64,000 bases of DNA from positions 1,701,089 through 1,765,088 of the forward strand of contig CBDAVM010000002.1 in NCBI GenBank assembly GCA_965200895.1. The letters run 5' to 3'. Positions 1 to 64,000 of the stretch are shown here, in pieces. The stretch is from Vicinamibacterales bacterium. Its GTDB lineage: Bacteria > Acidobacteriota > Vicinamibacteria > Vicinamibacterales > UBA8438. Numbering within the stretch: the first letter of the stretch is position 1; every line of letters begins with the position of its first letter. Below the pieces are notes generated by a model. It worked only from the letters and a program-made list of their open reading frames with translations, searched no databases and was not told the DNA's origin. Both the position numbers and the translations under genes were made by a program.

Positions 1-744
1 GTCGTCGCAGCATGCATCCAGCGCGGAGCGGGTTTCGAGCGGCGCGACCTGCTCGTCGCGGACGTGCCATACACCGGTCGAGACCAGCGCCCCGCTGCCG
101 TCGGCCGCCGCCAGATAGGCGGTGCCGGCGTCCCAGCCCCCCCATTCGGCGAGCAGCCGCATGACGTCACGGACCGCCTGGTGGAACGACCCGGCGTCGC
201 GGCCCACCGCCATGGCGCCCTCGAGCATGCGCAACGTGTCCGCCTGCCTCGTCTCCGGCGTCTCGTCCCCGACGGCGCCGGCCGCGGGGTTCCGCGTGTC
301 GGTGACGTCCGTGTAGACGAGCAGCGTCTCGCCCTGATCGGTGGGTCGGGTTCGGATCTCGATCCAGCGTCCGTCCGGGGTCCGCAGGGTCTCGGTGGCG
401 GCCTCAGCGCGTCCTTCGAGCTGCTGCGCGATCCACTGGTCCAGCTCGGCCTCGGGTACGAGCACCACCGCACGTGTCGCGGTGTAGCGCACCAGGTCCT
501 CGAACTCGAGGCCGGGCGTCAGGGTGACCTCGGGATAGAATTCCCTGAAGCGGCCGTTGCAGGCGACGAGCCTTCCGGAGGCATCCCACACCGCCAGTCC
601 CGCCATGTCGCTCTCCAGCAGGGCCGCCAACCGCGCGCGCGTCCTGACCTCGCTCGCTCGCGCCGCGCGCAGGCGCCACACCACCGCGCCCAGCAGCAGG
701 ACCAGCAGGACCAGCAGCGAACCGACGGCGCCCCACAGGATCAT
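1..744 (-). CDS. Sensor protein, N-terminal part (TM helix + PAS-like domain + start of a GAF-like domain); 3' end lies beyond the window start
   Basis: Absent from the ORF track because it runs off the left edge. My frame check found no TTA/CTA/TCA triplets in plus frame 1 from 1 to 753, and ATG at 744-742. Translation MILWGAVGSLLVLLVLLLGAVVWRLRAAR (one TM helix), then GLAVWDASGRLVACNGRFREFYP...TPDGRWIEIRTRP (PAS-like), then FHQAVRDVMRLLAEWGGWDAGTAYLAAADGSGALV (GAF-like). Confidence 0.6.
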   Translation of the reverse strand, partial: MILWGAVGSLLVLLVLLLGAVVWRLRAARASEVRTRARLAALLESDMAGLAVWDASGRLVACNGRFREFYPEVTLTPGLEFEDLVRYTATRAVVLVPEAELDQWIAQQLEGRAEAATETLRTPDGRWIEIRTRPTDQGETLLVYTDVTDTRNPAAGAVGDETPETRQADTLRMLEGAMAVGRDAGSFHQAVRDVMRLLAEWGGWDAGTAYLAAADGSGALVSTGVWHVRDEQVAPLETRSALDACCDD

Positions 745-3000: not shown

Positions 3001-5061
3001 TTGGCCGCTCTGGAGCGGGACGCCGCGGTTGCGCGGAGCGGCTCCGAGCCTCCGCTGGAGCGGGCCATCCTGCGCGCCACGCTGCTCGCCGCGGCCGGTC
3101 GGGCGGTGGCAGCGGAATCCGCCTGGCGCGAGGTAATCGCACGTGCGGTCTTCATGCGCACCTTCGCGCGGCGCGCCATCGTCGAGAGCGCGGCGGGTCG
3201 GGACGCGCCGGACGTCGCCGCGCCCGTGCTCGCCGAGCTGATCCGCAGCGATCCGGTTCGCCACCGCGATCTGGTCCTGCGCGTAGCCGCAGCGCACCTG
3301 ACCGCGGGTGCGCCGCGACGCGCGGCGGCGCTCTACCGGCAGGTGCTCGACGCAACCACGTCGAGCGCGGCGGCGGACACCGCCCGTCTGGGACTCGCGG
3401 CGGCGCTCGAAGCCGGCGGTGACGACGCCCGGGCCCTGGCCACGCTGCGGACGGCGCAACTGCGTCACCGCACGGCAGACGCGTTCGAGGCGGCGCGGCG
3501 CGAGGCCCGGCGGCTGGCGCGCGCCCGTGGTGAGACGATCCCGCCGTTCACCGAGTCCGAGTACGGGGGCCTGGTCCGACGGCTGCGCGGCGCGTCCCGC
3601 TTCGAGCCCGCGCTCGCCCTGCTCGACGAATGGGCGGCGGCGTTCCCGGACCGTGCGTCGCAGGAGCGCATGGCCGCAGAACGGATCGAGACGCTGTACG
3701 CGCAACGCGACAACGAGGCCGCGGTCCTGGCCAGCGCCGCCTTCCATGACCGTTTCCCGTCCAGCACGATGGCGCCCGCCATTCGGTTGACCGACTTCCG
3801 ACTGGCCGTGCGCATGGGCGACATGACGCGCGCCCGCCGGCTCGGAGGCGACATCTGGCACCGGCGCGTGCCCGGCGCCACAGCAGCCCAACGCCGGGGG
3901 GCCGGCGTCCTGCTGGCCGCCGCGCTGGTGGCAACCGGTGACGTGACCGGCGGTCTCGCCTTCTTCCCCGGCCTGTTCGAGACGGCGCCTTCCCCCGACG
4001 ACGAGCGCGCGATCCTCTGGCGGGCCGGGGTCGCCGCGGTGCGCGTCGGACGATACGACCGGGCGCTGACCAACCTCCGCGGACTGCTCCAGCGAGAGCC
4101 GGGCGGGGAGCTGGCGCTCGCCGGCCGCTACTGGCTGGGCGTCGCCCACGAGCAGCGCGGCGATCACGCCGCGGCCACCGGTGTCTTCGAGACACTGGCC
4201 ACGCGCCACCCGTACCACTACTACGGGCTGACGGCGCGGCGGCGGCTCGTCGAGCTCCGCGGGCAGCCGGACGGCGGCCTCGACGCCCCCACGCCCCTCG
4301 ACTTTCCGCGTCTGGCCGTCAGCCCCACATCGCGCCAACGCGCGGAGTTCCGCGCTGCGATGGCCCTGGCGCGGGCCGGGCTGGTGGCCGATGCGGCGTG
4401 GTACCTGCGGCGCCTGCTCGACCGCCGCCGCGGCGACCGGGGGCTGGCCCTGCTCGCGGCCCGCGCCTCGTCTCAGGCCGGCGACCACGCGAGCGCCGCG
4501 CGGGTGCTCTTCGACCACTTCACGGCCTGGTTCCTCCGGCCGGGGCGCGGACTGCCGGACGACTTCCTGTCGATGGCCTACCCCCGCCCGTTCTGGGACA
4601 CGGTCGTCGAACAGGCCCGCGTCCACGGCGCCGACCCGGTGCTGCTGGTGTCGCTGATGCGACGTGAATCGCGCTTCGACCCGGCGGCGCGCTCCGCGGT
4701 GGGCGCGGTCGGGCTGCTGCAGATCATGCCCTATACCGCCGAGGCGATCGCCGAGCGGGCCGGCGTCGGTGCGATCCTGGCGGGCGGCATCGACGATGCC
4801 GTGCTGGCCGAGCCGCGCGTCAACATCGCGCTCGCGGCGCGCCTGAACGCCGACATGCTGGCGCTGTTCGACGGTGAACGTCTGCCGGTGATCGCCTCCT
4901 ACAACGCCGGCGAGGAACGTGCCGGCGACTGGTGGACCGCCGCGCGCGGCCTGCGCGACGACTTCTTCGTCGACAGCATCCCGTACACGGAGACCCGCAA
5001 CTTCGCCCGCGAAGTGATCGCGAACTACGCCGCCTACCAGCGAATCTACGGCGCCCGGTAG
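3001..5061 (+). CDS. slt: Soluble lytic murein transglycosylase (Slt70-like: helical N-terminal region + SLT catalytic domain)
   Basis: C-terminal SLT motifs LLVSLMRRESRFDPAARSAVGAVGLLQIMPYTA and ASYNAGEERA. The long Ala/Leu/Arg-rich helical repeat N-terminal region resembles Slt70. This ORF has no signal peptide; see 2818..2955. Confidence 0.8.
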   Translation: MAALERDAAVARSGSEPPLERAILRATLLAAAGRAVAAESAWREVIARAVFMRTFARRAIVESAAGRDAPDVAAPVLAELIRSDPVRHRDLVLRVAAAHLTAGAPRRAAALYRQVLDATTSSAAADTARLGLAAALEAGGDDARALATLRTAQLRHRTADAFEAARREARRLARARGETIPPFTESEYGGLVRRLRGASRFEPALALLDEWAAAFPDRASQERMAAERIETLYAQRDNEAAVLASAAFHDRFPSSTMAPAIRLTDFRLAVRMGDMTRARRLGGDIWHRRVPGATAAQRRGAGVLLAAALVATGDVTGGLAFFPGLFETAPSPDDERAILWRAGVAAVRVGRYDRALTNLRGLLQREPGGELALAGRYWLGVAHEQRGDHAAATGVFETLATRHPYHYYGLTARRRLVELRGQPDGGLDAPTPLDFPRLAVSPTSRQRAEFRAAMALARAGLVADAAWYLRRLLDRRRGDRGLALLAARASSQAGDHASAARVLFDHFTAWFLRPGRGLPDDFLSMAYPRPFWDTVVEQARVHGADPVLLVSLMRRESRFDPAARSAVGAVGLLQIMPYTAEAIAERAGVGAILAGGIDDAVLAEPRVNIALAARLNADMLALFDGERLPVIASYNAGEERAGDWWTAARGLRDDFFVDSIPYTETRNFAREVIANYAAYQRIYGAR

Positions 5062-5287: not shown

Positions 5288-7056
5288 CGGGGATCGGCCG
5301 CTCCCTCCAGCACATCAGCATCGGCGTCGAGGACGATCGCGTGCGCCGCACCCTGGCTCGCACGAGCGGTCAGCACGTGGCCGCGCGCCTCGAGCAGCGC
5401 CACGGTGTCCGGCGACAGGCCGCGCCGCTCGTGGACGAGACGGTCGGGCAGCCACTGGTGGTGGAAGCGCGGCGCATCGACTGCCTCCTGCACGTTCATC
5501 CCGAAGTCGATGACGTGCAGGATCGTGTGCAGCACCGTGTTGATGATGGTGCGTCCGCCGGGACTCCCGGTGACCATGAACAGGCGGCCGTCCTTCGAGA
5601 CGATTGTGGGGGTCATGCTCGACAGCATGCGCTTGCCCGGCGCTGCAAGGTTCGGCACGGTGCCGATGAGGCCGTTGGCGGTGGTCAGACCGGGCGCGGC
5701 GTTGAAGTCGCCCATCTCGTTGTTGAGCAGAAAGCCCGCTTCCGGCACGACGATCTTCGAACCGTAGGACTGCTCCAGGGTCGTGGTCAGGGCTACGGCG
5801 TTGCGCTCGGCGTCGACCACCGACACGTGCGTCGTCTCCTGGCCGACCGCCGGCCACGCGAACGTCTCGGGACCGGACCGCGACGCGCGGTCGTCGTCGA
5901 TGGTGGCCCGCAGCTCCGCCGCGTAGTCCTTCGACACGAGCCGCAGCAACGGCATCGACGGGTTGAAGTCGGGATCCCCCAGGTGCCGGGCGCGGTCGGC
6001 GAAGCCGCGCCGCATCGCCTCGGCGATGCGGTGGACGTTGCGCGCCGAGCCGTAGCCGGCGGCCCGCAGGTCGTAGCCTTCGAGCACGTTCAGCATCTGC
6101 ACGAGGGTGACGCCGCCGGAGCTGGGTGGCGGCATGGACACGATCTCGTGCCCGCGATAGAGGCCCCGTATCGGATCGCGGACCCGCGGCTCGTAGGCGG
6201 CGAGATCCGCCTCGGTGATCAACCCGCCATGCGCCGCCATCTCGCGCGCGATCAGCGCCGCGGTCCGCCCGCGGTAGAAGCCGTCCGGCCCATCGGCCGC
6301 GATCCGCTCCAGGGTCGCCGCGAGCTCCGGCTGGCGGAAGCGCGCGCCGGCGGCGTACGGCGCGCCGGCGGCGGAGAACGCGGCGACCGAGGCCGGATAC
6401 CGCGCCATGCGCGGCAGGACGGCGGCCAGTGATGCCGCACGCGCCCAGGTGAGCACGAACCCGTCACGTGCGAGCGCGATCGCCGGCTCCACCAGCCGCC
6501 GCCACGAGAGACGCCCGTGGTCGCTCCAGGCGCGATGGAGACCGGCGACCGTACCGGGCACGCCGACCGCGACGTGGCTGTCGTGATGCCGCGCGAAGTC
6601 GTAGGCGCCGTCGGTGAGAAACATCTCTGCCGACGCGGCCGCCGGGGCGGTCTCGCGGAAGTCGTACGCGGCGGCCGAGCCGTCCGCCGCACGATGGACG
6701 AGGAACCCGCCGCCGCCGATGTTGCCCGCCGCCGGCAGCGTCACCGAGAGCGCGAACGCAGTGGCGACCGCCGCGTCGACCGCCGATCCGCCGGCCTGCA
6801 ACACGTCGCGGCCCACTTCGGCCGCCACCCGGTCGGAGGCCACCACCATGCCCTGCCGCGTCCGCACCGGCTCGGAGCTGCCGCCGACGGTGGCGACGCA
6901 CAGAGCGCCCGCCGTGACGACCGCGAGCAGGCTCCGCCAGCGACGGGGCGCCCGCGAACGTTCCGCCGACACGTGGGCGGGGGCTCCGACCGCGCGACCG
7001 CCCTGCGTGCCGTCGCGCCCGTCGGCCGCGCGCGTGTGAACGGGCCTCATCACCAT
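5257..7056 (-). CDS. ggt: Gamma-glutamyltranspeptidase
   Basis: GGT motifs including the autoprocessing site region GQETTHVSVVDAERNAVALTTTLEQSYGS, plus FLLNNEMGDF and MLSSMTPTIV. Track ORF trimmed to ATG 7056 (MVMRPVH...), which precedes the signal-like WRSLLAVVTAGALCVATVGG. Confidence 0.85.
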   Translation of the reverse strand: MVMRPVHTRAADGRDGTQGGRAVGAPAHVSAERSRAPRRWRSLLAVVTAGALCVATVGGSSEPVRTRQGMVVASDRVAAEVGRDVLQAGGSAVDAAVATAFALSVTLPAAGNIGGGGFLVHRAADGSAAAYDFRETAPAAASAEMFLTDGAYDFARHHDSHVAVGVPGTVAGLHRAWSDHGRLSWRRLVEPAIALARDGFVLTWARAASLAAVLPRMARYPASVAAFSAAGAPYAAGARFRQPELAATLERIAADGPDGFYRGRTAALIAREMAAHGGLITEADLAAYEPRVRDPIRGLYRGHEIVSMPPPSSGGVTLVQMLNVLEGYDLRAAGYGSARNVHRIAEAMRRGFADRARHLGDPDFNPSMPLLRLVSKDYAAELRATIDDDRASRSGPETFAWPAVGQETTHVSVVDAERNAVALTTTLEQSYGSKIVVPEAGFLLNNEMGDFNAAPGLTTANGLIGTVPNLAAPGKRMLSSMTPTIVSKDGRLFMVTGSPGGRTIINTVLHTILHVIDFGMNVQEAVDAPRFHHQWLPDRLVHERRGLSPDTVALLEARGHVLTARASQGAAHAIVLDADADVLEGAADPRRADAAAVGY

Positions 7057-10596: not shown

Positions 10597-12420
10597 GTGC
10601 TCGCCGCGGGGCTGTCCCTGTACGCCCTCTACTGGGTGGTGGGCATCATCCAGCCGCAGATCTACCGGGTCAGCTTCCTGCTGGTCACCCTCGTCCTGAC
10701 GTTCCTCGTCTTCCCGGCCCATCCGCGCTGGCGAGCGCGGCCGGTGTGGCTCGACTGGGCGCTCGCCGCCGCCGCCGTCGCGGCGCTGGCGTGGCCGGTC
10801 ATCGACTTCGACCAGTTCGTCTACCGCGCCGCCACGCCGCTCGCGGTGGATCTGGTCCTCGGCGTGGTCACGACGCTGCTGGTCCTGGAGGCCACGCGCC
10901 GGACGGTCGGGCCGATCCTGCCGGTGACGGCGGTGGCGTTCCTGCTCTACGGCTACTACGGCCCCTACCTGGAGCTGGTCGGGCTGGAGCTGTTCGCGCA
11001 CCGCGGCTACGACGCGGCGCGCCTTGTCGGCACGCTGTACATGACGCTGGAGGGCATCTTCGGCGTGCCGCTGAACGTGTGCGCCACCTTCATCATCCTG
11101 TTCACCATCTTCGGCTCGGTCCTGGCCAAGTCCGGTGCCGGACCGTTCTTCATCAACTGGACGATGGCGGCGTTCGGGCGCTCGGACAGCGGCGCGGGGC
11201 CGGGCCGGACGGTGACGCTGTCGGGCTTCCTGCTCGGCACCGTGTCGGGCAGCGGCGTGGCGACCACGGTGACGCTGGGCGCGGTGGTCTGGCCGCTGCT
11301 GCGGCGCGCGGGCTTCTCGGCCGAGATCGGGGGCGGCATCCTCTCGGCCAGCGGCATCGGGGCCATCATGGCGCCGCCGATGATGGGAGCCGCTGCGTTC
11401 CTCATCGCCGAGTTCCTGCAGATCACGTATCTGCAGGTGATCGTGATGGCGATCGTCCCGGCCATCCTCTACTACCTCTCCATCGTGCTGATGATCGAGG
11501 CGGACGCCCGCCGGCTGGGAACGAAAGCGGTCACCGTCGACCTCCCGTCGGTCGGCGAGCTGACCCGCCGCCACGGCTACCAGTTCCTGCCGCTCATCGC
11601 CATCGTCGTGCTGCTGGTGAGCGGGATGACCCCGTTCCGGGCCGTCTTCCTGTCGACGCTGCTCGCCGTCGGCCTCAGCTTCCTCAACCGCAGGAACGCG
11701 CTCTGGCCTCGCCGGCTGCTCGAGGCACTCGAGGCCGGCGGCCGCGGCGTGCTGTCGGTTGCGGCGACGACCGCCACGGCGGGGATCATCGTCGGGGTGG
11801 TGACGCTGACCGGCCTCGGGCTGAAGCTGTCCGGCATCATCGTCTCGCTCGCCGGCGGCAACATCTTCCTGACGGTGGTCTACGCCGCCGTCGCGGTCTG
11901 GATGCTCGGCCTCGCCGTCCCGGTCACCGCCTCCTACATCATCGCGGCGGTCATGATCGCACCGGCCCTGACCCTGGTCGGCGTCCCCGAGTTCGCCGCG
12001 CACATGTTCATCTTCTACTACGCGGTGCTCTCCGAGGTCAGCCCGCCGACGGCGCTCTCGCCGTTCGCGGCGGCCGCCATCACCGGCGGCAACCCGTTCC
12101 AGACGATGATGCTGACCTGGAAGTACACGCTGCCGGCCTTCCTGGTGCCGTTCGCGTTCACGGTCAGCCCGGAGGGGGCCGGCGTCCTGCTGCAGGCGCC
12201 GCTCGGCGACATCGTGCGGACCGTCGGCACCGCCGCCGTGGGCGTGAGCGCGCTGGCGATGGGGCTCGGGGGCTGGCTGCGGCAGGCCGCGAACCCGGTC
12301 GAGCGCGTCGCGGCGGTGGTCGGGGGCCTGCTGCTCTTCTACGCGACCACCGTCACGGATATCATGGGACTGGTGCTGTTCGGCGCGGCCATCGCGCTGC
12401 ATCTGGTCCGCACCCGCTGA
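10597..12420 (+). CDS. TRAP transporter fused DctQ/DctM-type permease (TAXI-associated)
   Basis: About 18 predicted TM segments; typical TAXI-linked fused permease sequence. The true start is probably upstream of 10597: the conserved-looking RRLTGLTATLATVLAAGLSLYALYW is in frame, but no ATG/GTG/TTG exists between the receptor stop (10456-10458) and 10597. Confidence 0.8.
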   Translation: MLAAGLSLYALYWVVGIIQPQIYRVSFLLVTLVLTFLVFPAHPRWRARPVWLDWALAAAAVAALAWPVIDFDQFVYRAATPLAVDLVLGVVTTLLVLEATRRTVGPILPVTAVAFLLYGYYGPYLELVGLELFAHRGYDAARLVGTLYMTLEGIFGVPLNVCATFIILFTIFGSVLAKSGAGPFFINWTMAAFGRSDSGAGPGRTVTLSGFLLGTVSGSGVATTVTLGAVVWPLLRRAGFSAEIGGGILSASGIGAIMAPPMMGAAAFLIAEFLQITYLQVIVMAIVPAILYYLSIVLMIEADARRLGTKAVTVDLPSVGELTRRHGYQFLPLIAIVVLLVSGMTPFRAVFLSTLLAVGLSFLNRRNALWPRRLLEALEAGGRGVLSVAATTATAGIIVGVVTLTGLGLKLSGIIVSLAGGNIFLTVVYAAVAVWMLGLAVPVTASYIIAAVMIAPALTLVGVPEFAAHMFIFYYAVLSEVSPPTALSPFAAAAITGGNPFQTMMLTWKYTLPAFLVPFAFTVSPEGAGVLLQAPLGDIVRTVGTAAVGVSALAMGLGGWLRQAANPVERVAAVVGGLLLFYATTVTDIMGLVLFGAAIALHLVRTR

Positions 12421-12582
12421 GGGTGTGGTCGAGGTGACGGGATGGCCGGTCGGCGCCGCCGAGGCGCCGGGAGTCCCACAGGATCGGGGGAATGCAGTCG
12501 TCTGGTCCGCGCTCCTGCGGGCCCGTGCGATGGATTCCGCGGAGGATCGGATAGAGGTTCACCGGAGGATCGAGGTAACACC

Positions 12583-13881
12583 ATGAGATCACGGATTCGC
12601 CTGACGGCGCTCGCCGTCGTGTTCGCGCTGCTGCTCGTTCCGCAGACCCTGCTGGCCCAGGGGCTGGAACGCGTCACGCCGGAAGAGGTCGGGATGTCGT
12701 CGGAGCGGCTCGACCGCCTGAGCCTGGCGCTCGAGGGCTACGTCGACGAGGGCCGGCTGGCCGGCGCGGTGACCATCGTGGTGCGGCGCGGCCGGATCGC
12801 CTACCGCGAGGGGATCGGCTACCGCGACGTCGAGGCGCAGGCGCCGATGCCGTCCGACGGCATCTTCCGCATCGCGTCGCAGACCAAGGCGCTCGCCAGC
12901 GTCGGCGTCATGCTGCTGCAGGAGGAAGGCAGGCTGCTGATCACCGACCCGGTCGGCAAGTACCTGCCGGCGTTCGCCGAGACGACCGTCGCCGAGCCGA
13001 ACGACGAGGGCGGCTACGACGTGGTGCCGGCGCGCCGGCCGATCACCATCCGCGACCTGCTGACGCACACCGCCGGCATCAGCTACGGCATGGGCCTGCT
13101 GGCCAACCGCGGGCCGGCCGCCGACGCGTGGGCCGACGCGGGCATCACCGGCTGGTACTTCGCCGACCGCGACGAGACGGTGGGCGACACCATGGCGCGG
13201 CTCGCCGAGCTGCCGATGGACGCGCATCCCGGCGAGCGCTGGATCTACGGCTACAACACCGACATCCTGGGCGCGATGATCGAGAAGATCAGCGGTCAGA
13301 CGCTCGGCGCGTTCCTCAAGGAACGGCTGTTCGACCCGCTCGGGATGACCGATACGCACTTCTTCCTGCCAGAGAACAAGCTGGGCCGGCTGGCGACCGT
13401 CTATTCGTCCGTCGGGGACGGGAACAGCTTCGAGCGGGCGCCCGACCCGGGTCACATGGTGGGCCAGGGACACTACGTGAACGGCCCGCGCAAGGCGTTC
13501 TCGGCGGGCGCCGGAGTGCTGTCGACCGCCACCGACTACGCCACGTTCCTGCAGATGATGCTCAACGGCGGCGAGCTGAACGGCACGCGCATCCTGTCGC
13601 GCAAGACGGTCGAGTCGATGATCTCCGACCACCTGGGCGACATCCCGTTCCGCAACGGCCAGGGCTTCGGCCTCGGCTTCTCCGTCACGCACGACCCGGC
13701 CGCCGGCGGCCTGCCCGGCTCGGTCGGCGAGTTCGCCTGGGCCGGCGCCTACCACTCCGTCTACTGGGTCGACCCGCAGGAGGAGATGGTCGTCGTCTAC
13801 CTGACGCAGATCATCCCGGCCATCGGCCTCGACGACCAGCAGAAGGTGAGATCGCTGGTCTACCAGGCGATCGTCGACTGA
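12583..13881 (+). CDS. Serine hydrolase, beta-lactamase/transpeptidase-like family, exported
   Basis: Trimmed to ATG 12583 (GGAGGA upstream). Signal MRSRIRLTALAVVFALLLVPQTLLAQG. SxxK motif in FRIASQTKALASVG; YGYNTD (YxN-like). Confidence 0.8.
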   Translation: MRSRIRLTALAVVFALLLVPQTLLAQGLERVTPEEVGMSSERLDRLSLALEGYVDEGRLAGAVTIVVRRGRIAYREGIGYRDVEAQAPMPSDGIFRIASQTKALASVGVMLLQEEGRLLITDPVGKYLPAFAETTVAEPNDEGGYDVVPARRPITIRDLLTHTAGISYGMGLLANRGPAADAWADAGITGWYFADRDETVGDTMARLAELPMDAHPGERWIYGYNTDILGAMIEKISGQTLGAFLKERLFDPLGMTDTHFFLPENKLGRLATVYSSVGDGNSFERAPDPGHMVGQGHYVNGPRKAFSAGAGVLSTATDYATFLQMMLNGGELNGTRILSRKTVESMISDHLGDIPFRNGQGFGLGFSVTHDPAAGGLPGSVGEFAWAGAYHSVYWVDPQEEMVVVYLTQIIPAIGLDDQQKVRSLVYQAIVD

Positions 13882-13893
13882 CGGCTCACGAGA

Positions 13894-13926
13894 GTCGGGG
13901 CGGCCGACACGCCCGGCCGTCCCGAC
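13894..13926. terminator. GC-rich hairpin between convergent genes (possible bidirectional terminator)
   Basis: GTCGGGGCGGCC-gacacgc-CCGGCCGTCCCGAC lies between the stops at 13881 (+) and 13994 (-). Confidence 0.35.
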
Positions 13927-13993
13927 AACGCACGCTGCGGACACGCGACTCGGAGGACCTTTTCGCCCGCCGGCCGGAGGTCGCCGCCACGCC

Positions 13994-56239: not shown

Positions 56240-56616
56240 TCAGTTGACCGGGTTGTCTGGCGCGGTGCGCTCGAGGATCTGGAGCAGCAGACTGCGCATC
56301 TCCCGCATCTCAGTGCGGACCTCGCCGATGTCGGCACGCATCTCGGCACGCATCCCGTGCATCCCGGTGCGCAGCTCGGCGCGCATCTCGCGCATGTCGA
56401 TCTGCATTTGGTCCATCCGGTTGTTGGTGTCGTCGATTCGGGCGTTGAGGGTGGCGTTCTGCTGGAACATCATGCTGATGAGGTAATGATCGTGCGGACG
56501 GCGATCTCGCCGTCGCTTGCTGGCGGGAATGGCCCGCTGCGTCGTGCCGAACACGGCGTGGACGGCCTCGGCGTCGCGCTCGCGGCTGAGGATGGCGTCG
56601 AGACTTCCGTGTTCCA

Positions 56617-56620
<4 letters not shown>
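56240..56620 (-). CDS. Met/Arg-rich coiled-coil small protein (126 aa), translationally coupled to hsdR
   Basis: Its ATG overlaps the hsdR TGA (ATGA at 56620-56617). The C-terminal half [49 protein letters not shown] shows a heptad-like repeat. No family recognised. Confidence 0.55.
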
Positions 56621-59756
<3,136 letters not shown>

Positions 59757-59757
<1 letters not shown>

Positions 59758-60263
59758 CAACCAGCGGCTCCGCTGTGCTCGAGCACGAACCGCGCTCGCT
59801 CACGTCGCAACATCTCGTACGGGGTCATGCAGCGCACGCCGAGGGCGACGCAGGCGTTCGGAATCTTGATCTTGCGGTCGGTATTTGCGGGAACCTCGTG
59901 CGTCACGACGATGCAGTCGTGAGCCACCGCGTGCGCAACGAGCCAGTAGTCAGCGACCTGCAGGAAAGTCCCAACCGCCGCGGACGTATAGCCCGCGCCA
60001 CCGGCCCAGTCGCTCACGGTCTGAAGCGTACCGAGCACGGAGTCGTCCGGCCTCAGAAAGAAGCCGCTGCCGCGCTCGGCAGCCCATCGGGCCAGATCGT
60101 CGTCAACGGCATGGAGTTCATCGGCAACCTTCTCGACGCTCGCCACCGTTCCGTCCGCGTTCCTGCGGATCAGCCAGTCCCAGAATGCGGGGCAGAAGTC
60201 GAAGCCGTAGTGGAGATTCTTGGCCTGAATGAAGACGTTTGCGTCGAGGAGGTACCGGATCAC
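59757..60263 (-). CDS. DUF4411 PIN-like domain protein
   Basis: [31 protein letters not shown]...SVEKVADEL...LARWA...[20 protein letters not shown]...KIKIPNAC follows the DUF4411 pattern. Its GTG start overlaps the ImmA stop (GTGA). Confidence 0.8.
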
Positions 60264-61414
60264 GACAACGCCCCGACTTCACGTCCGAGGCGGTCGAAGG
60301 TCTCGGTCCTGGAGATACCAAGCATGCGATAGGCGTCCCGATAAAGCGTCTGCCCCTCCAGCGTGCTGACCACGACCGCCTGAACGAACCGGCGGCTCAT
60401 GCGAGAGAGCGTCGTCCGATAGAAGTCGCCTCCGCCACTGCCGCGCTGTGCAAGTTTGCGCAGACGGGTCGATTCGTGCGCCCAGGCCGCGTCGAACCTG
60501 TCGCGGTCAAGCCGGTTCGCATCAAGCAGGCGCCGCAGAATGACCAGCGGGCTGACCTTGAACGTGCGCGCCAGCCGGGCGAGTGCGTCGGGAAGCGCCT
60601 CGTCGTCGCGCAGTTCGGCCCGCAGTGCGTCCAACGGCGCCAGCAGCTCGGCCGCGACGGCGTTGCACCAGATTTCTTCACGCCGCTGTTGCTGAGTCGG
60701 CGCCGCCTCGCTGTTCGACAAGGCGGAGGCGCCGAGCCAAAGATGCGCAAGCTCGTGGGCCAGCGTGAACATCTGCGCCGCCTTCGTATCGGCGCCATTG
60801 ACGAAGACGAGCGGCGCCAGGGGGTCGGACAGTGCGAAGCCGCGGAACTCCGCGGGATCGAGCCGGCGGCTCGTGTTGCTCCCGACGACCCCGCTCACCA
60901 TGACGAGCACGCCCGCGTCCTCGGCTTGTCCGATCAGCAGCCGCAACGCATCGGTCCATGTCGGGCACGCGTGTCGGGCGGCCAGATCGACACCGAGCCG
61001 GGCGCCGATCATGGGCGCGACGGTCTCGGGCGCGATCGCGATGGTTGCGCTGCCGACGAAATCCGCGGCCGGTTGCCCGGCAATGCGGACGAACTCGCGA
61101 TACCAGCTCTGCCGCTCCTGGCAGGCGTGGATGGTGTCCAGCAGGTCAGGGCTCGGCCGCTCCAACGCCTGCCCGGCCAGGGTGCGGAAGTCCGCGATGG
61201 GCAGGGACTCTTCGGGAGGCTCGCTGAGGAACAGATAGCCGACTGGAACGTGGACCGCGCGGGCGAAGTCCTCAACCTGCCGCAGGGTGGGCCGGACCTC
61301 GCCCGCTTCCCACGCCGGCAACTTCCTGAACCGCGCCGCAAGACTCTCCGGCGCGAGGCCGGCGCGCTCGCGCGCCCAGCGGATCAGCGCCGGATTGACG
61401 GGCGCGCGCATCAT
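60260..61414 (-). CDS. XRE-type HTH + ImmA/IrrE family zinc metallopeptidase
   Basis: ATG 61414 sits 6 nt after GAGGGAGGTG. N-terminal HTH (LIRWARERAGLAPESLAARF...WEAGEVRPTLRQVEDFARAVHVPVGYLF). HEXXH in FTLAHELAHLWLG, with a downstream E in CNAVAAELLAP. Confidence 0.8.
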   Translation of the reverse strand: MMRAPVNPALIRWARERAGLAPESLAARFRKLPAWEAGEVRPTLRQVEDFARAVHVPVGYLFLSEPPEESLPIADFRTLAGQALERPSPDLLDTIHACQERQSWYREFVRIAGQPAADFVGSATIAIAPETVAPMIGARLGVDLAARHACPTWTDALRLLIGQAEDAGVLVMVSGVVGSNTSRRLDPAEFRGFALSDPLAPLVFVNGADTKAAQMFTLAHELAHLWLGASALSNSEAAPTQQQRREEIWCNAVAAELLAPLDALRAELRDDEALPDALARLARTFKVSPLVILRRLLDANRLDRDRFDAAWAHESTRLRKLAQRGSGGGDFYRTTLSRMSRRFVQAVVVSTLEGQTLYRDAYRMLGISRTETFDRLGREVGALS

Positions 61415-61440: not shown

Positions 61441-62565
61441 TCATGCCTGTCCGTCGTCGCGAAAGACGCTTTCCACGTGCGGATTCAGCAATCTCCAGCG
61501 CTGGCCGGTGCGCTCGAGGTCCCCCGTCAACACCACCAGCGCCCGGTCCTTGTGGGCCTGAACCGCCCGGTCGTAGTCCGCCTGCTCCAGAACCGCCACG
61601 ACCGACTGCCGTTGCCCGTCGATCTCGGTTGCGAGACGGATCGTGCCGTCGTCCTCGGTCTCTCCGCGTTTCAGGAGCCGAACGAATCCGTGGAGACGCA
61701 CGTCGGGCCGGGGGGCGCGCTCGCGGAGCGACCGGGCCGCCTCGCGCAGGATTGGCGCATCGGCCCGACCGAATCGAACCACCGTCGTCGGCGCCGCCCG
61801 GGGTCGGGTCCGGGCCCACGAGATGCCCACGTCCAGCGTCGGGAAAGGCTCGACGAGCCGCACCAGCGCCTCCCACAGATTGGCGCTCACGCCCCGCGCC
61901 ACCGCGCCCGCGAAGGTGCTCCCGTCGCCGGCTGTTGCCGATTCGGTCGCCTCGCGCGCCGCCGTGAGCGCCTCCGCCAATCGCCTCGTCATCCGGCGTT
62001 CGATCGGCGCCTGCCGGTCGTCCGGATCCGGAAGCACCCCGGGCATCGGCGGCGGTACGACCGGCGTCAGCAGCGTGACCACGAAACTGCCCTGGTCGGT
62101 CTGTCCCACGCGCACACGGCTCAACAGGTCGCTCGCCGCGCGGTTCGGACCGTCACGGTAGACGGCCTGCGGTTCCCGAAGCGAACAGGCTGCCGACAGC
62201 AGCATGTCGCGCGCACCCGCGACGAGGTCGATGCCGTCGTGCAGCGTCAGGCTGCCGTCGTCGCTCTCCCCGGCGCGAAGGCGGACGACGTCGCGGTCCG
62301 CCGTCACGAGGGACCGGTAGACGGTCAATTGGTCCTGATCGGCGACCTGCGAGAAGGTCTCGACCAGTGTCGCCACGACGTTGGCGTAGTCCCCGAGGTG
62401 AGCCGTGCGCGGGACGATGATCTCCGGCAGCGCCTCGCCGTCGTAGACGTCCGAGTGCTCTCCGTACGGTTCGGACCGCCGCCAGCCGGCGGCGCGCACA
62501 TAGGCGGTGAGGGCGGCCGGCGAGACCGCCCGCAGCGCGTCGGCGTCGCGAATGCTGACCTTCAT
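61441..62565 (-). CDS. Hypothetical protein (374 aa), no recognisable domain; first gene of the ImmA/DUF4411/HsdR block
   Basis: ATG 62565; balanced, non-repetitive composition, unlike the Arg-rich antisense ORF. MKVSIRDADALRAVSPAALTAYVRAAGWRRSEPYGEH...; the stop lies 26 nt before the ImmA start. The first 78 codons are duplicated at 63667-63900. Confidence 0.65.
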   Translation of the reverse strand: MKVSIRDADALRAVSPAALTAYVRAAGWRRSEPYGEHSDVYDGEALPEIIVPRTAHLGDYANVVATLVETFSQVADQDQLTVYRSLVTADRDVVRLRAGESDDGSLTLHDGIDLVAGARDMLLSAACSLREPQAVYRDGPNRAASDLLSRVRVGQTDQGSFVVTLLTPVVPPPMPGVLPDPDDRQAPIERRMTRRLAEALTAAREATESATAGDGSTFAGAVARGVSANLWEALVRLVEPFPTLDVGISWARTRPRAAPTTVVRFGRADAPILREAARSLRERAPRPDVRLHGFVRLLKRGETEDDGTIRLATEIDGQRQSVVAVLEQADYDRAVQAHKDRALVVLTGDLERTGQRWRLLNPHVESVFRDDGQA

Positions 62566-62592
62566 CAGATCACTTCTCGTGGGATCGTCGCC
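62332..62592. repeat. Direct repeat copy 1 (5' end of the 374-aa gene plus ~27 bp upstream)
   Basis: Hand alignment of 62332-62565 with 63667-63900 gives 234 bp, no indels and 9 mismatches (about 96%). Weaker similarity continues about 27 bp past the ATG. Confidence 0.85.
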
Positions 62593-62836
62593 TTCCGGCC
62601 CGCCCCGGGCGATCCGCCAGCCTCGCGATCCACTTCCGGTCGAACCTCTGCGACCACTTGTCGACGGTGGTCGTGGACATGCCGACCTCCTGCGCAACGT
62701 CCGCTTGCCTCATGCCCTGGCCGCGCAGGAGCACGATACGGGGCGCGGAGGCTGTCGCGGGTGATAAACGCCGATCCGGTGTCGGAACAGATGCGTCGGG
62801 CCTGTACCCGTTACCTTTCGAGCGAGTCCGCGACAT
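62570..62836 (-). CDS. Small HTH protein resembling the N-terminal DNA-binding part of IS630-type transposases (fragment or exapted regulator)
   Basis: APRIVLLRGQGMRQADVAQEVGMSTTTVDKWSQRFDRKWIARLADRPGRAGR matches the rariVLl..G.s...iA..lg.s..TV.kW..Rf...G...L.DrpR.GR pattern. No DDE domain follows. The stop lies 4 nt before the 374-aa gene ATG. The ATG 62836 overlaps the upstream gene end by 26 nt. Confidence 0.5.
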   Translation of the reverse strand: MSRTRSKGNGYRPDASVPTPDRRLSPATASAPRIVLLRGQGMRQADVAQEVGMSTTTVDKWSQRFDRKWIARLADRPGRAGRRRSHEK

Positions 62837-63569
62837 CGTAACCCTTCCTCGTGACCTCAAACAAGTTCCGAGCATCCCCTGTGGCCCTGACGAAATCGTT
62901 AGCCTCCAGTTCTTCCATCCCGGCGACCCAGGAAGCCACGTCCCTGGGTCGGACGTTCTGAGGAATGAATGATCTTTCACCCACCTGAATAGACACACCT
63001 GGGGAACCCAGACCGCGGCGGTACTTAATTTTTCCGTCTCCGACCGCGGCAGTCCTGAGAATTTCTTTCGCTTCGCGCGACAACGACTTGCTGAGATCGT
63101 CTGAACTGACGAGCAATAGCTGCCCTACCTCGAGGTTGTTGTTCTCGATACTCCTCCCTCGTGCGCTGTCCGCAGCGAGCCGTGCAGTTACTCGCTCCAC
63201 GATATCCCTGTGAAGCTGTTTGAAGTCACTTGGCGTCGCCGTCCCATACTTGATGACAACCCGATGCCGAATATCGAACGGCAACCGCTCAGATCGGGAC
63301 TTCGCACAGATCATGACTACCGGCCCACCCGCGGCGTACGCGAATCCGAGCTCGTACCACACATTCGGGTTGTCAGTCGTGATGTCGGCAAGACAGATGT
63401 CGGCGTTCCGTATTCGATCCTCGATTGCCTCGATTGGTACATCGACAGCCGGATCGCGATCAACTCGATACGGCTCAACGCCGGCTTCGTTCAGGGCCGG
63501 CGCAAATACTTCGTCGTATCTCTTGTCGTTTTCGTCGTCGAACGGCTGGATCACAAAACACATTGGCAT
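62811..63569 (-). CDS. Low-GC gene: nucleoside 2-deoxyribosyltransferase/TIR-like Rossmann-fold N-terminal domain + unassigned C-terminal domain (252 aa)
   Basis: GAGGAA RBS. CFVIQPFDDENDKRYDEVFAPALNEAG...ADICLADITTDNPNVWYELGFAYAAGGPVVMICAK resembles the D..G/N....E.G.A.A.G.P core of NDT-fold proteins. The C-terminal ~110 aa are unassigned. GC is visibly lower than the flanks. Confidence 0.6.
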   Translation of the reverse strand: MPMCFVIQPFDDENDKRYDEVFAPALNEAGVEPYRVDRDPAVDVPIEAIEDRIRNADICLADITTDNPNVWYELGFAYAAGGPVVMICAKSRSERLPFDIRHRVVIKYGTATPSDFKQLHRDIVERVTARLAADSARGRSIENNNLEVGQLLLVSSDDLSKSLSREAKEILRTAAVGDGKIKYRRGLGSPGVSIQVGERSFIPQNVRPRDVASWVAGMEELEANDFVRATGDARNLFEVTRKGYDVADSLER

Positions 63570-63624
63570 GGCATTCCTCAGTCAATACGAGTCCACACTT
63601 CTTCGCGGCGAACGACGTTGGCCC

Positions 63625-63900
63625 TCAACTTGCGACCCGCCTCGGCAGCAAAAGGAGTGTGCACGCGTCCTGATCGGCGATCTGCGGGAACGTCTCGACC
63701 AGTGTCGCCACGACGTTGGCGTAGTCCCCGAGGTGAGCGGTGCGCGGGACGATGATCTCCGGCCGCGCATCGCCGTCGTAGACGTCCGAGTGCTCTCCGT
63801 ACGGTTCGGACCGCGGCCAGCCGGCGGCGCGCACATACCCGGTGAGGGCGGCCGGCGAGACCGCCCGCAGCGCGTCGGCGTCGCGAATGCTGACCTTCAT
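63625..63900 (-). pseudogene. Truncated duplicate of the 374-aa gene (first 78 codons, then unrelated tail)
   Basis: MKVSIRDADALRAVSPAALTGYVRAAGWPRSEPYGEHSDVYDGDARPEIIVPRTAHLGDYANVVATLVETFPQIADQD, then ACTLLLLPRRVAS and a stop. Similarity to 61441..62565 ends exactly at the repeat boundary. Confidence 0.7.
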
Positions 63901-63929
63901 CAGATGATCCCTCTCGTGCGAGCGTCGCC
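63667..63929. repeat. Direct repeat copy 2
   Basis: See 62332..62592. Confidence 0.85.
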
Positions 63930-64000
63930 CCGGTCCGGCGGGTCGGCCGGCTGGGGGAGTCGTCGAGCGTGTCGTCGGGGAGGTTGGGATTGAGACAGGC
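63915..64000 (-). pseudogene. Second hsdR 5'-region fragment (continues beyond the window end)
   Basis: 63959-64000 aligns with 59550-59591 (35/42 identical by hand). The minus-strand translation ACLNPNLPDDTLDDSPSRPTRRTGATLAR parallels HsdR residues [30 protein letters not shown]. Confidence 0.45.

Follow-up and report, generated by a model that had tools for sequence, protein, structure and literature searches.

Organization of the locus

The window analysed here is a stretch of 64,000 nucleotides from the genome of a Vicinamibacterales bacterium (assembly GCA_965200895.1, contig CBDAVM010000002.1, here contig C2; C2:1701089-1765088), towards the end of which lies part of a type I restriction-modification (R-M) operon. 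Within this operon the 5' end of a 374-aa gene is present twice, as a long direct repeat on either side of a 1064-bp insert with a gene of predicted nucleoside 2'-deoxyribosyltransferase (NDT)/TIR fold. The structure is a real recombination scar of an ordinary kind that has already been described, and no new mechanism is called for. The whole genome was used for the analysis and the operon was read beyond the window end; positions are given in window coordinates throughout, unless a contig or locus is named. All genes of the operon are on the minus strand.

The intact 374-aa gene (61441..62565) is the PADLOC candidate PDC-M02B (E 1.1e-120), and its leader and 5' end form the downstream repeat copy (62332..62602). 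Upstream of this copy on the minus strand are an internal helix-turn-helix (HTH) fragment of an IS630-family transposase gene (62603..62810), the 252-aa NDT/TIR-fold gene (62811..63569) and an insert leader of 97 nt (63570..63666), which ends at joint J1 (63666/63667). The upstream repeat copy (63667..63937) comprises a leader of about 37 nt and PDC-M02B codons 1-78. The truncated copy of the 374-aa gene begun there is a 91-codon open reading frame (ORF; 63625..63900) composed of 78 homologous codons and a foreign tail of 13 codons. It is preceded by a dead 5' fragment of an older hsdR gene, here called hsdR' (64082-63921, window part 63921..64000), which is 79% identical in blastn to positions 59513-59673 of the live hsdR.

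The direct repeat

A repeat search returned 62332-62570 and 63667-63905 as a direct repeat of 96% identity, and blastn of the extended region against itself aligned 62332-62602 with 63667-63937 at 93.4% over 273 bp (E 1.7e-114). In a codon-by-codon comparison the two copies differed at nine positions within gene nucleotides 1-234 (3.8%), without an indel. An earlier reading of the window, made from its letters alone and referred to below as the sequence-only reading, had reported a repeat with nine mismatches in 234 bp and no indel, and the repeat search, the self-comparison and the codon comparison all confirm it. It was also correct that the repeats cover the 5' end of the 374-aa gene, the duplicated part being the leader and codons 1-78. 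The weaker similarity that it had seen beyond this segment does continue, but reaches about 37 nt upstream of the ATG and not about 27; this part of the alignment contains an indel of 2-3 nt, and beyond it the similarity is patchy to about -60. Homology to the full copy ends inside codon 79, after GATCAGGAC. The repeat unit, i.e., one copy plus the insert, has a length of 1335 bp. With 270-273 bp the repeat is, as had been pointed out, much too long for a transposase target-site duplication.

Support from independent assemblies

The genome is probably metagenome-assembled (its relatives are metagenome-assembled genomes, and the contamination estimate is 1.76%) and contains a 94%-identical paralogue on another contig, both of which would favour an assembly artefact in the form of a misjoined or uncollapsed repeat. 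Against this stand the Logan contigs, which are short-read assemblies made run by run and were retrieved by exact-protein look-up. In at least six other SRA runs there are contigs that match J1 and J2, the novel joint at the other end of the insert, at 100% and are likewise identical through the insert and from hsdR' into the truncated copy. Contig L133 (SRR33991084; an identical contig occurs in eight samples) covers 65997-63876 at 100%, which includes the 3' end of hsdS, the PDC-M24A/B genes, hsdR' and, of the truncated copy, the first 25 nt. Contigs L139, L140 (six samples), L141 and L142 run at 100% from 63721, 63570 or 63608 into the intact copy, by way of J1 (where they begin early enough), the NDT gene, the IS630 piece and J2; J1 is spanned by L138-L140. 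The ends of the Logan contigs coincide with the edges of identical runs of more than 31 nt common to both copies (nt -4..61, 87..131 and 163..209), and breaks at such shared runs are explained by the behaviour of a k-mer graph when one population holds both copies. J1, in addition, lacks homology able to cause a misjoin. As contigs from other runs cross both novel joints at 100%, an assembly artefact is considered extremely unlikely.

Contig L138 (Logan SRR33991076, window 63721-62357) enters the intact copy, yet carries the bases of the truncated copy at nt 132, 137 and 162. This pattern reflects either a path switch in the assembly graph or gene conversion between the repeats in the population.

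Composition of the insert

The insert's GC content is 58.7%, compared with 69.9% for the contig. The lower GC ascribed to this segment in the sequence-only reading applies to the NDT gene (56%, with 64% GC at third codon positions), but not to the IS630 piece, which is host-like (70%, with 88% at third positions). The insert is a mosaic. Of its three novel joints, J1 lies inside codon 79 and J3, between the NDT gene and the IS630 piece, near 62800. J2 lies within 62590-62625, inside the transposase reading frame and at a patch of imperfect similarity where transposase codons (LADRPGRAGR) resemble the resident leader. The joints are illegitimate. The proposal that the repeats bracket a horizontally acquired cassette is supported, and matches to families and structures agree with its assigned content, an NDT/TIR-fold gene and an IS630-like HTH fragment.

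The 252-aa protein is predicted to combine an N-terminal NDT/TIR-fold (N-glycosidase-like) domain with a variable, winged-helix-like C-domain. Its match to Pfam Nuc_deoxyrib_tr (3.7e-5) has a score of 24.3, under the cut-off of 28.8, and PADLOC gave a weak match to a TIR effector. The structural model has an overall pLDDT of 86 with a confident N-domain, for which the best Foldseek matches were nucleoside 2'-deoxyribosyltransferases, the CMP N-glycosidase BcmB, DNPH1 and TIR domains (best 8pqt, 4jen and DNPH1; E 7e-5 to 1e-3, TM on target 0.5-0.7). The fold predicted from this model is of the flavodoxin-like NDT/DNPH1/TIR type. The NDT-like family comprises more than 3000 members of about 258 aa, in which the N-domain is highly conserved (invariants ...NPNVWYELG... 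and PFD..HR) and the C-domain variable; E73 of the W-Y-E-L-G motif, the candidate nucleophile, is invariant in 34 homologues.

The NDT gene is single in this genome, the 90% cluster of its protein has one member, and the closest full-length homologues are just 60% identical. Among the nearest homologues whose context was read, three are in R-M or mobile contexts, one between type I hsdS and hsdR, one directly after an MmeI-type enzyme preceded by Peptidase_M78 and DUF4411 genes, and one beside a TIR_2 gene on a mobile element. A general link of the family to type I R-M systems was dropped, as hsdM was nearby in only two of the 39 more distant NDT loci from JGI (loci of at least 4 kb), and the association is claimed for the nearest homologues only. 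The 97-nt leader, considered as the possible tail of a donor gene, showed no similarity to the genes that precede the nearest NDT homologues. In the locus of the closest homologue (L025, 60%), the TIR_2 and NDT pair is flanked by three copies of one piece (L025 positions 1328-1557, 3804-3901 and 6668-6896), the opposite strand of which encodes the N-terminus of a tyrosine recombinase.

The IS630 piece (NCBIfam transpos_IS630, 4.7e-9) corresponds to about codons 20-75 of the transposases of this family in relatives. A start codon, inverted repeats, a TA duplication and a catalytic domain are all missing from it, and no second copy was found in the genome. A search for the ends of the element by comparison with the genes of relatives (about 50% protein identity) gave no usable DNA match. 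The piece is an inert passenger and not the agent of the insertion; IS630 transposition with a target-site duplication was rejected, there being no IS ends. On both sides of the operon, no recombinase was found within about 7 kb. The insert itself contains neither a replicon nor a recombinase nor a transfer function, and the borders of the cassette, which are gene fragments, show no att-like or shared short site. An integron-like or site-specific cassette was rejected for lack of both a recombinase and a common short site.

Operon context

The sequence-only reading had placed the cassette at the head of the operon. It is located mid-operon, with hsdM, a fusion of a nucleotidyltransferase (NTase) domain to hsdS and the PDC-M24 pair upstream of it on the same strand, beyond position 64000. 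These genes are hsdM (69329-67500), the NTase-hsdS fusion ORF (67207-65327), a DUF6978 gene identified as PADLOC PDC-M24A (~65334-64879) and a DUF1828/DUF1829 gene identified as PDC-M24B (64882-64118). PDC-M02B is followed by an HTH and Peptidase_M78 (ImmA/IrrE-type) gene (60260..61414), a DUF4411 (PIN-like) gene (59757..60263) and, as the final gene of the operon, the live hsdR encoding the type I restriction subunit (56617..59760; PADLOC REase_I, 1063 bits). On the minus strand the order is hsdM, NTase/hsdS, PDC-M24A/B, hsdR', the truncated copy with the insert, PDC-M02B, ImmA, DUF4411 and hsdR.

The PDC-M24A/B pair, which sits between hsdS and the hsdR' stump, has a low GC content (57-58%); in the relatives L031 and L034 the pair is found immediately before a live hsdR. 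An ORF of 130 aa (56240-56632, minus strand) overlaps the stop of hsdR and belongs to no Pfam family.

The paralogous locus

A second, paralogous type I R-M locus is present on another contig of the genome (C1:722000-736000, L024). The amino acid identity between the two loci is 97% for HsdR, 98% for HsdM, 94% for the 374-aa protein and 48% for HsdS. A gene with a HEPN motif and a 3' stump of the DUF1828/9 gene occupy the place that PDC-M24 has on C2, and the ImmA-DUF4411 part of C2 corresponds on C1 to an ImmA stump (16-34 codons) followed by a gene on the opposite strand (336-350-aa ORF). The C1 locus also holds an hsdR stump of its own.

The strain-level contig L131 (ENA ERZ25068762 ctg148263_3x_l, 1-20243) is 99% identical to the C2 left flank through the first target recognition domain (TRD1) of hsdS, and from the central region of hsdS onward it is 99% identical to C1. 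The crossover falls within the conserved central 268 bp of hsdS and amounts to a swap of TRDs. Within its C1-type flanks the contig carries the C2 allele of the 374-aa gene (~99%; the own C1 copy is 93% identical). This suggests, as judged from the alignments, homologous exchange or gene conversion between the two loci; with L131 being a contig of 3x coverage, polishing could also account for the converted tract. The locus is a hot spot of recombination and bears several further scars made of gene ends.

Descent of the two copies

In C1, in L131 and in five relatives from the genus or family, the stop of a DUF4365 gene (PDC-M02A) overlaps the ATG of the 374-aa gene. The C2 locus has lost PDC-M02A; what is left is about 25 nt from its 3' end, fused to hsdR' and alignable with the 3' end of PDC-M02A in C1 and L131. 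The PDC-M02 pair is incomplete on C2 (B alone) and complete only on contig C1. Both repeat copies share derived features of the junction between hsdR' and the PDC-M02A remnant, immediately before the ATG, namely GGCGACG, the loss of GT, and ACGAGA, and therefore both descend from the C2 locus type, after the loss of PDC-M02A.

The differences between the copies were polarised with C1 and five outgroups. The truncated copy has the derived state at about seven of the nine (A21G, R29P, E44D, S72P and V74I, together with two silent changes) and the intact copy at two. Five of the seven changes on the truncated branch are non-synonymous, and conservation among 28 homologues is at least 90% both at A21 and at position 72. 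To judge from these substitutions, the upstream copy is probably a pseudogene decaying after duplication in situ; the intact downstream gene is presumably functional. The exchange had been described as recent, which is doubtful in view of the divergence of 3.8%, the derived state of about seven of the nine changes in the stump, and the identical structure in contigs from at least six runs. The divergence and the fixation in several samples speak against a very recent event.

Search for an empty site

A single copy of the gene without the insert occurs in C1, in L131 and in 28 genomes of the family, none of which has the leader formed by hsdR' and the PDC-M02A remnant; the nearest of these is the paralogous locus. 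An exact-pattern scan of JGI metagenomes with the start of the gene yielded no match, and one scan of genome contigs yielded relatives of 57-77% only. Outside this genome, the closest homologue of the 374-aa protein reaches 79% identity.

Origin of the structure

On balance, the structure probably represents a fixed recombination scar that arose in situ and belongs to the class termed insertion with long target duplication. By this account 1.06 kb of foreign DNA would have lodged just within the 5' end of PDC-M02B, and about 280 bp of resident sequence (about -45 to +234/237) would have been duplicated in the same process. A break or a stalled fork in codon 79 may have been repaired by copying foreign DNA, the chromosome being re-entered at the patch of similarity some 280 bp upstream, which would leave the stump, the insert and the intact gene in this order. 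The event would have been non-site-specific, involving either template switching during replication or break repair with homologous pairing and a microhomology joint, and at least one separate event would be required for the joint between the NDT gene and the IS630 piece. Selection may have kept those variants in which PDC-M02B was intact. The upstream 5' stump would since have drifted while the downstream copy stayed complete, and the two repeats might now support RecA-dependent loss of the cassette.

Several points weigh against this account. The mosaic insert needs more than one event. No strain-level genome with an empty site was found, and insertion, as opposed to deletion elsewhere, is deduced from single-copy homologues only (C1, L131 and relatives from the genus). 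The excess of seven over two derived changes is not significant in a relative-rate comparison (chi-square ~2.8), and the usual non-synonymous share of the 374-aa gene is already about 40%.

Import of the insert together with the intact copy, as linear DNA that came from a different strain or else from the paralogous locus, by homology-facilitated illegitimate recombination is rather unlikely. De Vries and Wackernagel as well as Prudhomme et al., both in 2002, are said to have dealt with this type of recombination. The right end would have recombined homologously in or beyond PDC-M02B and the left end illegitimately in the resident gene, the first 78 codons of which would form the stump, and the difference of 3.8% would be partly allelic. 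Consistent with such an import, the intact allele has been exchanged between loci in L131, which also shows the inter-locus crossover in hsdS; at nt 137 and 162 the truncated copy is ancestral and the intact allele derived; and a displacement model of this type has been published for effector arrays (PMC5361080). However, the locus-specific leader junction common to both copies would demand a donor of this very locus type, most of the differences arose in the stump and are radical, a pattern closer to decay than to allelic variation, and the converted tract of L131 is subject to the reservation about its coverage. Campbell-type integration, which the sequence-only reading had put forward, is improbable and is neither the favoured nor the simplest explanation. 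It would consist of a RecA-dependent single crossover with a small circle that carried about 280 bp of the 5' region of the gene and the cassette. The geometry is exactly that of an insertion-duplication with a 5'-containing fragment (stump upstream, full gene downstream, unit of 1335 bp), and a repeat-cassette unit, once formed, could loop out and re-enter. The insert, however, has no replicon, recombinase or transfer function and is a mosaic of two unrelated fragments with a third, internal and illegitimate joint, so that a circle already bearing J1 and J2 presupposes the structure to be explained. There is also no clean pattern of chimeric variants along the repeat, and no second copy of the cassette was found in the genome or, at 90% identity or more, among 5.8 billion proteins.

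Very improbable is a function of the arrangement itself, either with the stump kept as a small N-domain protein (a regulator or decoy) or with the repeats acting as a reversible on/off switch of the NDT gene. The truncated copy does retain a Shine-Dalgarno-like GAGGGA, the ATG and the open 91-codon frame, and in the model of the 374-aa protein, which is otherwise poor (pLDDT 54), residues 5-88 at the N-terminus are the one domain predicted with confidence. Against a function, the stump has proline and glycine substitutions at conserved positions, stand-alone N-domain ORFs are practically absent from the 5.8 billion proteins (two others), and no stump beside a full copy was found in the 28 other family genomes that carry the gene.

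Comparison with known systems

Besides the 2010 study considered here, Nobusato et al., in 2000, reportedly also treated insertion with long target duplication. In the class as described by Furuta et al. 2010 (PMC2853133), the repeats have a length of 46-423 bp and all R-M types are represented; the insert often deviates in GC content, and the mechanism is left unresolved there, with DNA breakage thought to be involved. The class is delimited by a direct repeat of more than 30 bp flanking the insert, which here has 270-273 bp and 93-96% identity, by an insert of less than 20 kb without a responsible mobile element, which here has 1064 bp with the IS630 piece internal, and by a target that is single-copy in a related genome lacking the insert, for which the nearest case here is the paralogous locus with its different leader. 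The C2 locus thus resembles the class in the absence of mobility genes of its own, the long target duplication, the deviating GC content and the setting in an R-M locus. It differs in that the insert is an NDT/TIR-like accessory gene with a dead IS630 fragment and not an R-M system, in that the insertion hit the 5' end of an accessory gene, itself a defence candidate, within the operon, and in that no strain-level empty site is available for the C2 locus.

Type VI secretion effector-immunity, Rhs and contact-dependent inhibition displacement arrays (Kirchberger et al. 2017, PMC5361080) are similar in the stacking of modules in a conserved operon, with truncated relics, and in having one side homologous and the other illegitimate, without an integrase. 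In such arrays, 3' relics and orphan immunity genes persist downstream of the new module, whereas the C2 locus has a 5' relic upstream and an intact gene regenerated downstream. Campbell-type insertion-duplication gives a product of the same geometry, but the insert on C2 is a mosaic and has no circular replicon or vector-like function.

Accessory defence or toxin genes are known within type I R-M operons, e.g., prrC in the EcoprrI locus. As there, the C2 operon has non-R-M, defence-type genes between hsdS and hsdR in the same orientation; unlike EcoprrI, it has several candidate systems stacked (PDC-M24, one half of PDC-M02, M78-DUF4411 and the NDT-like gene), with visible scars between them.

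The locus is a clean, independently confirmed case in which an accessory gene entered an R-M operon and left the target gene unbroken, and it retains several older scars of the same sort. It adds to the view that type I R-M operons collect defence-type genes without a recombinase. A broader proposal, which is doubtful at present, is that the accessory defence genes of type I R-M operons move as integrase-free cassettes, each capture duplicating the end of the neighbouring gene as portable homology. If this were true, RecA could excise the cassette as a loop and insert it again at any allele of the gene. The hsdR' fragment, the PDC-M02A tail, the stump of the 374-aa gene and the ImmA and DUF1828/9 stumps on C1 would then be successive rounds of one process, and the 107-bp duplication of an hsdR start in a relative (see below) would be a further instance. 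More useful leads for experiments are the NDT/TIR-like family, with its more than 3000 members, and the PDC-M02 and PDC-M24 candidates.

Other scars in this genome and in relatives

Two tandem type I loci are present in the relative G006. As proof of an earlier insertion with duplication, hsdR' is weakened, since a deletion between tandem loci such as these could leave the same stump.

In the relative G013 (L023, G013:C1) a direct duplicate of the hsdR start (11653-11759 and 12354-12460; 107 bp, 98%) brackets a single ORF of 188 aa without a Pfam match, just after an AAA_21/AAA_15 ATPase gene, in an architecture as at C2. In L031 a 3' piece of hsdR (12009-12110) is repeated 1.85 kb downstream (13856-13957), behind an AAA-type ATPase gene, and a repeat of 128 bp (2025-2152 and 4013-4140) lies on either side of hsdM.

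Elsewhere on contig C2, a third pair of Peptidase_M78 and DUF4411 genes (45% and 36% identical) is found at C2:1124797-1131698, beside an R-M-like locus with hsdR-like and hsdM-like genes. Isolated fragments of hsdR, hsdM and PDC-M02B are located at C2:2053876, C2:893769 and C2:1307732.

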